From Shigella phage Sf25, in sequence record MF327009: a stretch of DNA of 64,000 bases; one strand, 5' to 3'. Both the position numbers and the translations under genes were made by a program. Shown in pieces: positions 17,015 through 63,491 of this stretch (positions within the stretch are counted from its first letter, which is position 1; each line of letters starts with the position of its first letter). The notes beneath the pieces were generated by a model. That model did no database searches. It was given only the letters and a program-made list of their open reading frames with translations, and was not told where the DNA came from.

Positions 17015-17179
17015 TTACTCTTCTTTTTCTTTAGATTCCTCTTTCTTCTTTTTAGGAATCTGTTCAGGACCTTTATTTACTACAGCACCTGACGTTGTTC
17101 CAGTAGAGATATTTTCAGGATTACCACCTGAATCTCCAGCGACCATATCTTCTTTAATAAATTCTTTATATGTTTTCAT
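17015..17179 (-). CDS. small protein (54 aa) with capsid-targeting-sequence-like N-terminus, 61.1 position
   Basis: Own translation MKTYKEFIKEDMVAGDSGGNPENISTG...; resembles the MKTYQEFIAE leader of internal proteins. Confidence 0.4.
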   Translation of the reverse strand: MKTYKEFIKEDMVAGDSGGNPENISTGTTSGAVVNKGPEQIPKKKKEESKEKEE

Positions 17180-21687: not shown

Positions 21688-22536
21688 TTAATCAACTGCT
21701 ATTGGATGAATAGCATTAAACTTATGAAATGCTTCTGATTTTTCTTTACGTGAAACGCACATGCGAAGAACCTTTAATGGTTCGTCTTCTTCACCCAACG
21801 ATTTTCGTTTTTCAATATTAGAAGTTTTCCAACGAGCTTGCTCTGGAAACTCTCTATTGATTTGCTCAAGCGCTCTATTATGTTTAGAATTACTACGAAT
21901 TGAACTGCACCCGCCAGGAGCTTGTGCTTTTCCAGATACAACCAGATATTTGAACAAGGCCAAATGCGGATAACCTTGATTAATTAAATTGAGAAATGCA
22001 TACATATCTTCGCACAAATCAATTTTTCCATACCCAATTTGTTCTGTCGTAAGTTTTCCAAGGTCATACCATGTATTCGTGAATCCATATGAATTTTCAC
22101 GATAATTACCCCAAGATGAAGTAATTTTAAAAATTGGTAGGCGAGCATGACCATGATAATACCCGCAATCCATGGCATCCTCAACGTATTGAATCAATTC
22201 ATAGAACTGTTCACGGGTTAATTGATTGACTTTATCTACACAACGACGGTCATCTCTTTTTCGCATTGAACTCATACGAATAGTAGTATCATCGTCAATC
22301 ATCCAGATTCGTTGACCTGCATACATATCAGTAATTGCTTTACGAGTACCGGCAATTCCGTTTACATCATCAGGAATAGTTATAATTTTAGCTCTAGACC
22401 CATAAGCGTCATAATAAGCTTTTTCTTCATGTTCACGCACTACAATATGGGGTTCATAATCAGTCGGAAACATATCAAGGGCAGAAACTGCCCCGACACG
22501 CTGATAACTTGGAATTACGAATTGAATCATTTCCAC
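21688..22536 (-). CDS. GT-A type glycosyltransferase at the beta-gt locus (282 aa)
   Basis: IWMIDDDT motif typical of GT-A folds; replaces the 351-aa T4 beta-gt between uvsX and 42, consistent with T2/T6-type glucosylation. Confidence 0.55.
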   Translation of the reverse strand: MEMIQFVIPSYQRVGAVSALDMFPTDYEPHIVVREHEEKAYYDAYGSRAKIITIPDDVNGIAGTRKAITDMYAGQRIWMIDDDTTIRMSSMRKRDDRRCVDKVNQLTREQFYELIQYVEDAMDCGYYHGHARLPIFKITSSWGNYRENSYGFTNTWYDLGKLTTEQIGYGKIDLCEDMYAFLNLINQGYPHLALFKYLVVSGKAQAPGGCSSIRSNSKHNRALEQINREFPEQARWKTSNIEKRKSLGEEDEPLKVLRMCVSRKEKSEAFHKFNAIHPIAVD

Positions 22537-23381
22537 TCACCGTTATAATCTTTTTTCACAATATGAGTTTCGCCAGTATTCCACCAATGATCAACCAAGT
22601 AAAAATGACGAGAATATACATGAAGACTTCCAACATTCCATATAATAGAACCTGCTTTATACTGACGAGTTGAATCGCCGGCATTCAAATCAGATACTAA
22701 TTTATCTAATACGTATTTTTGCCATGCATAATCATTACGGAATCCGAAGACCACGTCATTTGAGCGCATGCTTACTACTGCATTGACTTTCTTATCACGA
22801 ATCAGGTACTGTACTGTATTAGTACACATGAAATCTGACATACCATCTTTATTGTAGTCAAATTGCATGGATGGACGAGTCATGCTTACTACTGCATTGA
22901 CTTTCTTATCACGAATCAGGTACTGTACTGTATTAGTACACATGAAATCTGACATACCATCTTTATTGTAGTCAAATTGCATGGATGGACGAGTATAAAT
23001 CATGATACCACGTCGAGAATCAGGATTTTGACCAAGTTCAGCTAAACACATATCATACTGGGCATAGTTATCTTCTGACCAAATAGCCCAACCATAATTC
23101 GAGTTAATTTCGCCTTTAGAAGATGCTACCTGCTGCCAAATCTTTGGTGTTTCGCCTGGAATATCTTTGACAAACAGACTTTGAGACTTGTACCATTCAA
23201 GTTCACGCTGAATGTATTCATCATTAAGAGCGCCAAAAATAAAGGGTTCATCTGCTACAAATGATGCGCCAATAATTTCAATAGTTTTAACACCGGTTTT
23301 ATCAACTACGAAATCTTTTTCTTTTAATGCAAGCCCCAAATGAAGACGGATTTCTTCAACTGTCATAAAGTCACTAATCAT
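22527..23381 (-). CDS. 42: dCMP hydroxymethylase gp42 carrying an in-frame 38-aa tandem duplication (284 aa)
   Basis: Thymidylate-synthase-like fold; peptide VNAVVSMTRPSMQFDYNKDGMSDFMCTNTVQYLIRDKK occurs twice. Confidence 0.85.
   Translation of the reverse strand: MISDFMTVEEIRLHLGLALKEKDFVVDKTGVKTIEIIGASFVADEPFIFGALNDEYIQRELEWYKSQSLFVKDIPGETPKIWQQVASSKGEINSNYGWAIWSEDNYAQYDMCLAELGQNPDSRRGIMIYTRPSMQFDYNKDGMSDFMCTNTVQYLIRDKKVNAVVSMTRPSMQFDYNKDGMSDFMCTNTVQYLIRDKKVNAVVSMRSNDVVFGFRNDYAWQKYVLDKLVSDLNAGDSTRQYKAGSIIWNVGSLHVYSRHFYLVDHWWNTGETHIVKKDYNGEWK
22767..22994. repeat. exact tandem duplication, 2 x 114 bp, inside gene 42
   Basis: Identical head-to-tail copies, in frame. Confidence 0.85.
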
Positions 23382-60602: not shown

Positions 60603-60983
60603 TCAATTAGAAAATAAATTTATCCAAGATTGTTCTTTAATTAAAAACGGCTCAGAATCATATGCCATTAAACTCTGTGTGATTAGTCCTTTAAAAGGCC
60701 CATCAATAAATTCCATGGTAAAATATGGAATTTTATTCATTAATCTTGCATTAGGAGCAGTGCACAAAACTCTGCATCCTTCGAATACGCCTTTTTGTAA
60801 TTTGTATTGCTTAGGATAAAATTCGCTCAAGACGTTGTTATTTGCCAAAATTTCAAAATGATTCACCAATTTATTTTTAATAGTTTTTGGCGAAAAATAA
60901 AGATATTCGAAAAGTTGCGTGTCTGTCATCATTGCATTCCGATTATGAAAAACTGTGGACGAGTAATACCACCAATGCAACAT
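60603..60983 (-). CDS. hypothetical protein
   Basis: ORF track. Confidence 0.4.
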
Positions 60984-61468
60984 TTACTATTGCAGCAGTG
61001 TTGCACAGTTTCAATATGAATATCGTAAATTTTATCCATATCAGGAGATTTAACAGGCTCATCGATTATATACAAAATCCGTGAAAGCGATAAACCTCTG
61101 AACTTGCTTCCTTTATTACCGATAAAACTACGGACAGAATCGGTAAATAAACGGAATCGAATATCATCGCTAGAATAACGAGAAAATTCTTTTTTAATGT
61201 GGCCTGCAGAAATTTTAGCGTAAGCTGAAGTATTAGAAAGAACAATAACTGTTCCACCATCATACAGCCAATTAGCAGCAAAGTTAGTCACAGCAGTTGA
61301 TTTACCGGATTGTCTGCCACCATCTAATCGAAGTGTGCAATACTGCTTGAGTAAGTCTTCAAATGGTGGGATATAATCGTTTTTACAAATTTCTTCTACT
61401 CTAGCATCAGAATGGTGTGTAAAAGCATTCATCAGGGATAGATAAGGACCAGTTAAAAATGTTCTCAT
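60929..61468 (-). CDS. small P-loop NTPase-like protein
   Basis: Walker A GGRQSGKST, Walker B-like ILYIIDEP. Confidence 0.45.
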   Translation of the reverse strand: MRTFLTGPYLSLMNAFTHHSDARVEEICKNDYIPPFEDLLKQYCTLRLDGGRQSGKSTAVTNFAANWLYDGGTVIVLSNTSAYAKISAGHIKKEFSRYSSDDIRFRLFTDSVRSFIGNKGSKFRGLSLSRILYIIDEPVKSPDMDKIYDIHIETVQHCCNSKCCIGGITRPQFFIIGMQ

Positions 61469-61608
61469 TTCTTCTCTCTAAGTTTGGGCCATTCCATGGC
61501 GCATGAATTGTCCATTTCTGTATTTACCCATTACCGCACTTGGGCTCGACCTTATTACAGGTTGGCGGGAATCCCTCATAGAATCATGAGGTCCAGTTTG
61601 TTCCCATA

Positions 61609-62082
61609 TTATTTGAACGATTTAACGTACTGAATAGAACCTTTACTATTTACAAAGGCAATTTTACCATTTTTATTATACATTGTAGCAGTACGTTGAT
61701 AGCCATAAGTTTGTTTACCAGATTGATAACCAACTAATGCAAAATTATCTTCACCCATTTTATTCTGTTTAGCGCGAATGCGTTCATGACCATGTGCCAT
61801 AAGAACCTTAGCATCACCAGTTGCAATGGATCGACGAGTTTTTTCATCTTCAACTGTATTAACAAAGTCGTCAAATGAATCAAATTTAGCATGAGATTTA
61901 TTATACAATTTTCCATCTACTGCATAATTATATCCCTGTACATCCATCTCAACTTCTGTACCATCATCCAATACAGCAGTAATTTTCTGTCCTTTTTTAA
62001 ATTTCAAAAGATCAGTAAAAGATTCAGCAATAATTTGAGAATTAATAGCTGCTTCAGTGATAAATTCTTGATATGTTTTCAT
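61609..62082 (-). CDS. internal protein (capsid-targeted), 157 aa
   Basis: N-terminal capsid targeting sequence MKTYQEFITEA; adjacent to e as T4 ipII/ipIII. Confidence 0.55.
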   Translation of the reverse strand: MKTYQEFITEAAINSQIIAESFTDLLKFKKGQKITAVLDDGTEVEMDVQGYNYAVDGKLYNKSHAKFDSFDDFVNTVEDEKTRRSIATGDAKVLMAHGHERIRAKQNKMGEDNFALVGYQSGKQTYGYQRTATMYNKNGKIAFVNSKGSIQYVKSFK

Positions 62083-62098
62083 GTGTATCCTTTAATTT

Positions 62099-62416
62099 TT
62101 ATTCTTTAGGGAAGTTTTTAGAATATGCATCATAAAGCTTATTTCCAATACGGCGGAAAACTCTAGCCGCAAAACGATTTTCTGGGTTTTTAATCATGAT
62201 TTGCATCATATAAGTACCCGCGTCAGAAAGAGCTTCTTCATAGTACCCGTTAATTTCTTTAAGAGTCCTACGTTTACCGCCAGGACCATCAACAGTGATT
62301 TTCCATTTACCTGTAGAAGTGCGACTTGGCGGCTCAACTTGTTCAATCCAGATATAACCGCCTTCTACACGTTGTCCTGCAGCAGATTCTGCAATAAATT
62401 CTTGATAGGTTTTCAT
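62099..62416 (-). CDS. internal protein (capsid-targeted), 105 aa
   Basis: N-terminal capsid targeting sequence MKTYQEFIAES. Confidence 0.55.
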   Translation of the reverse strand: MKTYQEFIAESAAGQRVEGGYIWIEQVEPPSRTSTGKWKITVDGPGGKRRTLKEINGYYEEALSDAGTYMMQIMIKNPENRFAARVFRRIGNKLYDAYSKNFPKE

Positions 62417-62470
62417 GTGTTTCCTTTAAATATTTTAATTAGTAATTTGTCTCTTCAAGCAACTGTGAAT

Positions 62471-62500
62471 ATACTATCACAATTCTAGGAGAAAGTAAAC
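62471..62500 (-). promoter_or_regulatory. early-promoter-like site upstream of internal-protein genes
   Basis: Minus strand reads GTTTAC-N-TGATAGTAT. Confidence 0.4.
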
Positions 62501-62504
62501 AACT

Positions 62505-63035
<531 letters not shown>

Positions 63036-63491
63036 TTAAAAGAGGCTGTTCATTATTCGGTAAAGTGAAGGACCCATCACATATTGCCACTGAGTACGAG
63101 GAATAAGAGCAAAAGCATCCATCTCTGGAATCATAACGCCATCTTTATTTTCAAAATAAGACTCACAACGGCAATTTCTGAACATCTCATGCTCTACTGG
63201 AATCGTATAATAAAATAACTGTAAGTCTTTATTACTAGAATATTTAAATACACCTAGGTCTTCTAGAAGGTCTGGATTATAATTGTTAAAACCAGTCTCT
63301 TCTGAGCATTCTCTTCGTGCTGCATCTAATGCGCTTAAATCAGAATTTTCTACACGCCCCTTTGGAATATCCCAGCGATGTGCCATCATTCCAGGCTTAC
63401 GAGAACCAGTAACTCGTCCCATAAATAAATCTTTATCTTCTGTCATAAAGATAATACCAGCTGATAATGTTTTCATTTTAATTTCCTGCAT
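63036..63491 (-). CDS. nudE: Nudix hydrolase
   Basis: Nudix box region (RRECSEETG); 151 aa, position next to e. Confidence 0.8.
   Translation of the reverse strand: MQEIKMKTLSAGIIFMTEDKDLFMGRVTGSRKPGMMAHRWDIPKGRVENSDLSALDAARRECSEETGFNNYNPDLLEDLGVFKYSSNKDLQLFYYTIPVEHEMFRNCRCESYFENKDGVMIPEMDAFALIPRTQWQYVMGPSLYRIMNSLF

Follow-up and report, generated by a model that had tools for sequence, protein, structure and literature searches.

ip10 and ip4, two known internal head protein genes at the T4 ipIII/ipII position in Shigella phage Sf25

Phage internal proteins arrive before any phage gene expression and hence act as a first line of counter-defence. Shigella phage Sf25 encodes two adjacent ORFs, both on the minus strand and both located as in the initial annotation (62099..62416 and 61609..62082), that join the N-terminal leader of T4 internal proteins to bodies unlike those of T4 IPII and IPIII. 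This raises the question of whether they are variant alleles, and hence candidates for new host-defence inhibitors, as that annotation proposed, or members of families already described, and what their products are likely to do. We addressed the question within a window of 64,000 nucleotides, the whole stretch of DNA analyzed (sequence record MF327009). The two genes are as follows:

62099..62416, minus strand: ip10, internal head protein precursor of 105 aa (ORF; starts MKTYQEFIAESAAG / MKTYQEFIAESAAGQRVEGG)
61609..62082, minus strand: ip4 (ipIV), internal head protein precursor of 157 aa (ORF; starts MKTYQEFITEAAIN / MKTYQEFITEAAINSQIIAES)

Database comparisons placed both products in described families. 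Ip4 matched Pfam family DUF7412 (PF24183) along its entire length (residues 1–157 on profile positions 1–158; E = 5.7e-96; 319.4 bits against a cut-off of 27), as well as PHROG 3155, "internal virion protein" (E = 6e-102). All 157 residues are identical (100%) to the proteins of T2, RB3, RB18, RB33, and PP01, and tblastn recovered Ip4 from 470 phage records, 290 of them at an identity of at least 99%. Homologs in Klebsiella, Salmonella, and Serratia phages share 61%–71% identity, such that the family spans 61%–100% identity across T4-like phages of Escherichia, Shigella, Klebsiella, Salmonella, and Serratia. Ip10 was assigned to PHROG 3966 (E = 2.7e-34) and occurs in 189 records. Its 105 residues are 100% identical to PP01 Ip10 and to the proteins of SH7 and slur02, and more distant matches include RB69 ORF124c (95%), the "Ip10" of SP18 (71%), and homologs in Enterobacter and Cronobacter phages (~52%). 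The PP01 record names the same two genes ipIV and ip10, and Ip4 (IpIV) is the depositors' name for the 157-aa protein; many records label Ip10 as "hypothetical protein" or, wrongly, as "IpII" or "internal head protein III." Judged by these matches, both genes are catalogued internal head protein genes of T2-like phages, with alleles identical to database entries. The proposal that they represent new or variant alleles therefore does not hold, as Ip4 is the T2 protein, with a Pfam family of its own, and Ip10 is the PP01 protein. Gene families, names, leader, locus polymorphism, and the anti-defence hypothesis were all known already.

The relationship to the T4 proteins is a separate matter. Full-length BLASTP alignments with T4 IPII and IPIII stop at residue 13–14. 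Once the 10-residue leader was removed, BLASTP found no match between either mature sequence and T4 IPI, IPII, or IPIII (E >7), nor with T6 Ip5 and Ip6 or the other leader-bearing ORFs of RB69 (E >0.9), and the same queries returned 100% identity to Ip4 of T2 and PP01 and to Ip10 of PP01. The divergence of the bodies from IPII and IPIII, as first described, was thus borne out, and by sequence comparison, Ip4 and Ip10 are not orthologues of IPII/IPIII. The contrary possibility raised alongside it, that these are ordinary T2/T6 alleles of IPII/IPIII, is correct in substance for T2 and PP01, but the alleles concerned are ip4 and ip10 rather than IPII/IPIII orthologues, and T6 carries no internal-protein gene at this position.

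Each precursor opens with a capsid-targeting leader, which ends at residues 8–10 in the L/I-X-E motif of the prohead protease gp21 (predicted sites):

62387..62416, minus strand: Ip10 capsid-targeting leader MKTYQEFIAE, with I-A-E as the predicted gp21 site; identical to the T4 IPII/IPIII leader
62053..62082, minus strand: Ip4 capsid-targeting leader MKTYQEFITE, with I-T-E as the predicted gp21 site; Thr9 falls on the unconstrained X of L/I-X-E

The initial annotation had recognized both as the leader that directs T4 internal proteins into the prohead; they match the leader of T4 IPII/IPIII at 10/10 and 9/10 residues, respectively. Mutational work on T4 IPIII attributed targeting to Tyr4 and Phe7, and processing to Ile8 and Glu10 (PMC9026906). 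All four residues (Y4, F7, I8, and E10) are retained in both leaders. A six-frame regular-expression scan across all 64 kb (MK[TSQ][YF].[ED]F[ILM].E) produced only three matches, namely ip10, ip4, and gene 61.1; the chance expectation is in the order of 1e-4 matches per window (a rough estimate, not a computed value), and the leader pair is not a chance match. After cleavage at Glu10, the predicted mature form of Ip10 comprises 95 aa (10.8 kDa, pI 9.6). That of Ip4 comprises either 147 aa, if cleaved after Glu10 (16.5 kDa, pI 9.1), or 137 aa, if cleaved after Glu20 (15.5 kDa, pI 9.3). Hence, both predicted mature proteins are small and basic. The longer propeptide of Ip4 is suggested by a further motif:

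62023..62052, minus strand: Ip4 residues 11–20 (AAINSQIIAE), with a second [I/L/M]-x-E; candidate second gp21 site, based on family conservation

In the Ip4 family alignment, E20 is invariant (14/14 members) and position 18 is I, L, or M, while residues 10–18 of the Ip4 model have a pLDDT below 50 and are predicted to be flexible. T4 IPI sheds a 19-residue propeptide that ends in I-T-E (PMC9026906). Considering the invariant glutamate and the flexible segment together with the IPI precedent, it is reasonable to suppose that Ip4 possibly carries an IPI-like propeptide of 20 residues, or one that is removed in two steps. An internal L-K-E in Ip10 (residues 52–54) was rejected as a second gp21 site, as the model places it in a beta strand and the family does not conserve its Glu. 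The gene 21/22 head cluster is located outside the window; the nearest relatives (SH7, PP01, and T2) are classified with T4 in the genus Tequatrovirus.

Leader-like N-termini were also observed in other ORFs. Gene 61.1 (17015..17179, minus strand), situated directly upstream of primase gene 61, encodes a 54-aa early-region protein (MKTYKEFIKEDMVAGDSGGNPENISTGTTSGAVVNKGPEQIPKKKKEESKEKEE). The first residues conform to the capsid-targeting leader (with Y4, F7, I8, and E10 all present), and the remainder is of low complexity. The K5 variant of its leader is also present in the RB69 homolog of Ip10 (MKTYKEFIAE). RB69 itself has four leader-bearing ORFs around denV in segment 1417..3171 (127c, 125c, 124c, and 123c). 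Of these, 123c starts MKTYQEFIAAVTLS, with Ala at the position of the cleavage residue Glu10, and 127c has a degenerate leader (MKTYMNFYQN). These two proteins may be packaged without cleavage, or may be unpackaged.

The reading of both ORFs as internal-protein genes with a capsid-targeting leader is supported, and gene order places them at the T4 ipIII/ipII locus. Along the direction of transcription, nudE (63036..63491) is followed by the lysozyme gene e (62505..62999), ip10, ip4, and vs.8 (60929..61468). T-even phages have two variable internal-protein loci, and the interval between e and vs.8, the position of ipIII and ipII in T4, is one of them. Its content in other phages is as follows:

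T4: ipIII, ipII, and denV
T2: ip4 only
T6: nothing; e adjoins regB
RB69: four leader-bearing ORFs and denV
PP01, SH7, and BASEL phage Bas40: ip10 and ip4, as in the window

The surrounding genes point to a Tequatrovirus of the T2/PP01/SH7 type, and over the 1.1-kb stretch, identity amounts to 98.1% with Shigella phage SH7 and to 97.6% with PP01. Two elements bear on expression:

62417..62504, minus strand: e–ip10 intergenic region, with a weak sigma-70-like element (TTTACT, 17 nt, TAGTAT) and the ribosome-binding site AAAGGA
63013..63033, minus strand: two TATAAATA late-promoter motifs upstream of e, identified by motif match

The intergenic region and its ribosome-binding site reproduce, nearly base for base, the T4 region between e and ipIII. 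The TTTACT/TAGTAT element scored 8/12 in a manual count, below the scan threshold of 9/12, and is a candidate promoter only; the consensus promoter scan made no call immediately 5' of ip10. No terminator-like site was detected on the minus strand from e to the ip4 stop, and late transcripts starting at the motifs upstream of e could continue through e into ip10 and ip4. On this evidence, late co-transcription of e, ip10, and ip4 is plausible.

Comparisons with T4 and T2 indicate how the locus may have been assembled. Relative to T4, nucleotide identity is high from the e end through the intergenic region and leader codons 1–10, collapses at approximately 62386, and returns at approximately 61601, just past the ip4 stop. 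Relative to T2, the window is longer by exactly one segment of ~334 nt. A repeat search revealed two copies of a 54-nt direct repeat (83% identity, no strand assigned), and the far side of the pair is bounded by a conserved border:

62381..62434: upstream copy of the repeat, before ip10, covering the Shine-Dalgarno region and leader codons 1–12
62047..62100: downstream copy of the repeat, before ip4, at a spacing of 334 nt
61469..61608, minus strand: conserved right-hand cassette border of 140 nt, from the ip4 stop to the vs.8 ATG, where similarity to T4 resumes (93% identical)

The spacing of the repeat equals the length of the segment absent from T2. As read from the sequence, recombination within the repeated ribosome-binding-site and leader DNA, and within the conserved flanks, would be expected to leave such a pattern. 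The best explanation for the locus is that ip10 and ip4 are two interchangeable internal-protein cassettes of T-even phages, in line with the published view that the leader allows T4-like phages to package varied proteins (PMC9026906; PMC3012670).

The border region showed further peculiarities. In T4, the corresponding stretch comes after denV and has been assigned to vs.8 (219 aa) as its first 40 codons. A TAG closes the frame of this extension in the window, and likewise in PP01 and SH7, and therefore vs.8 in the window starts at the inner ATG (61468, 179 aa); T4 has TAT and a 9-bp duplication, with CTTATAGAG present twice. The N-terminal extension of T4 vs.8 is either an annotation artefact or a conserved stretch with another role. 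The GC-rich 140 nt 3' of ip4 were considered as a structured RNA, a candidate that was discarded based on the lack of an Rfam match and a folding z-score of 0.22. In addition, denV (endonuclease V, a pyrimidine-dimer glycosylase; 64939..65355 in T4) is missing between vs.8 and the ip genes, as it is in T2, PP01, and SH7, and is present at the locus in T4, JK38, slur02, and others. The absence of denV is consistent with the classical UV sensitivity of T2-type phages.

Neither sequence nor structure yielded a function for Ip4 or Ip10. AlphaFold2 models of the two proteins were of moderate confidence (pLDDT 77.9 and 78.9, pTM 0.72) and indicated compact folded domains. Comparison of these models with known folds yielded no match, and a search of BFVD returned only a member of the Ip10 family. 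Sequence searches for function against Pfam, NCBIfam, and PDB gave sub-threshold noise only (for example, CsgH, filamin, and a curli inhibitor). An exhaustive phmmer search of mature Ip10 against 1.84 billion representatives recovered one true family member (P0017) and five giant repeat proteins. The latter contain FG-GAP, RTX, filamin, Calx-beta, and SdrD-B domains according to Pfam; as these are mutually unrelated, the five matches were treated as compositional or repeat artefacts and rejected as Ip10 relatives. Literature searches using the names Ip4 and Ip10 retrieved unrelated papers only, and found no virion proteomics or injection data.

The DNA with which these proteins would be packaged is of a modified kind. 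A beta-alpha-glucosyltransferase (21691..22530) and a dCMP hydroxymethylase are also encoded in the window, so that the phage makes glucosylated hydroxymethylcytosine DNA of the T2/T6 kind, a substrate of Type IV enzymes. As a separate observation on the hydroxymethylase gene (gene 42; 22530..23381, minus strand), its product aligned to that of PP01 at 83.8%, over 284 alignment columns for a 246-aa query, which suggests an insertion, a divergent segment, or an upstream in-frame extension in an otherwise highly conserved enzyme.

What is established for other internal proteins offers a guide to the role of Ip4 and Ip10. According to the published consensus for the class, the varied internal proteins are injected and act against restriction (PMC3012670, PMC12373910). 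Ip1, Ip2, and Ip3 of T4 each inhibit a distinct GmrSD Type IV enzyme, without cross-protection (PMC12373910), and bas37_0260, a leader-bearing protein of phage Bas37, inhibits McrBC (bioRxiv 10.1101/2025.11.20.689424). Thus, all four leader-bearing internal proteins characterized so far are inhibitors of Type IV enzymes. For ip4-10, a screen against active members of a 15-group GmrSD panel yielded no reproducible inhibition (PMC12373910, section 10, Suppl. Fig. 9). Extrapolating from experiments on T4 IPIII, the leader would bind each protein into the prohead scaffolding core, and gp21 would cut C-terminal to Glu10 and, in the case of Ip4, probably to Glu20 as well. The mature proteins, which are basic (pI 9.1–9.6), would then remain with the packaged DNA and be injected together with it. 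By analogy with the characterized inhibitors, each would bind and block, once in the cell, one specific host Type IV enzyme that attacks glucosyl-hydroxymethylcytosine DNA, of a subtype outside the tested panel. We have moderate confidence in this chain as a whole, from leader-directed packaging and gp21 cleavage to injection and Type IV enzyme inhibition. Within this chain, the packaging steps stand on much firmer ground than the target, and given the parallel with T4, both Ip4 and Ip10 probably enter the head and are later injected alongside the DNA. Points against the Type IV step are the negative GmrSD screen and the conservation of Ip4 (at least 99% identity in 290 records, and 61%–71% across genera), the latter being unlike the fast divergence of an arms race. 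It is conceivable, if somewhat short of an even prospect, that Ip4, Ip10, or both could inhibit a modification-dependent nuclease or another defence system outside those tested so far, via a fold without a known relative. If true, the set of internal-protein inhibitors would grow beyond the four known pairs.

Other roles have to be weighed against this proposal. Ip4, and perhaps Ip10, could be mainly a basic core or DNA-associated protein that aids prohead assembly or DNA charge neutralization and has no specific host target. Such a role would fit the status of Ip4 as the sole internal protein at the T2 locus, its high conservation across genera, the basic character of both mature proteins, and the negative GmrSD screen of ip4-10. 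It would also have a precedent in T4 IPIII, mutants of which assemble heads more slowly, give ~40% of the normal burst, and form more polyheads (PMC9026906). We nonetheless consider it unlikely. T6 has no internal-protein gene at the locus and T4 has neither ip4 nor ip10, and so neither gene is needed for head assembly in the genus. Moreover, the precedent itself, T4 IPIII, inhibits GmrSD, and both proteins are modeled as compact folded domains rather than disordered polycations. Quite improbable, in our assessment, is an injected effector with a target other than a Type IV enzyme, whether another defence system, a host takeover target, or a competing phage. Here, too, the negative GmrSD panel would fit, and Alt, which is likewise packaged and injected, is an ADP-ribosyltransferase that counters Mokosh type I; Ip4 also has an invariant core with conserved H64, H99, E111, and D112. 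Finally, there is very little prospect that the leaders are relics and the ORFs expressed but unpackaged, or unexpressed, since, although the promoter scan called nothing directly upstream of ip10, both reading frames are undisrupted and have been conserved across hundreds of genomes, every functionally critical leader residue is retained, and the expressed T4 ipIII has nearly the same upstream region and ribosome-binding site.

Packaging through the leader, followed by injection and inhibition of a Type IV enzyme, is therefore the reading that we prefer for both proteins. Four internal proteins now have identified Type IV restriction targets, and T-even phages of the therapeutic type commonly carry Ip4 (470 records) and Ip10 (189 records); naming their targets would help to explain host range. 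The window adds no new allele or arrangement, and the same pair is present in PP01, SH7, and BASEL phage Bas40, all of which are available for experiments.

Among known systems, the closest counterpart is the Ip4 (IpIV) of T2, RB3, RB18, RB33, PP01, and ime09, which is the same protein, likewise encoded between e and vs.8, immediately upstream of the latter. In T2, ip4 directly follows e, whereas in the window, ip10 lies between them. The Ip10 proteins of PP01, SH7, SP18, VR20/VR25, and RB69 (ORF124c) belong to the same family (PHROG 3966), and the Ip10 encoded here does not differ from those of PP01 and SH7. T4 IPII and IPIII share with the pair the locus, the upstream region, the ribosome-binding site, the 10-residue leader, and a small basic product. 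However, these injected inhibitors of GmrSD-ECOR21 and GmrSD-ECOR17 have bodies without detectable similarity to Ip4 or Ip10. T4 IPI* (an inhibitor of GmrSD-CT596) and Bas37_0260 (an inhibitor of McrBC) are likewise leader-bearing, packaged proteins with unrelated bodies, and their genes are situated at the other internal-protein locus, near 57B, outside the window. The 19-residue propeptide of T4 IPI parallels the possible 20-residue propeptide of Ip4, although the two proteins share no sequence similarity.
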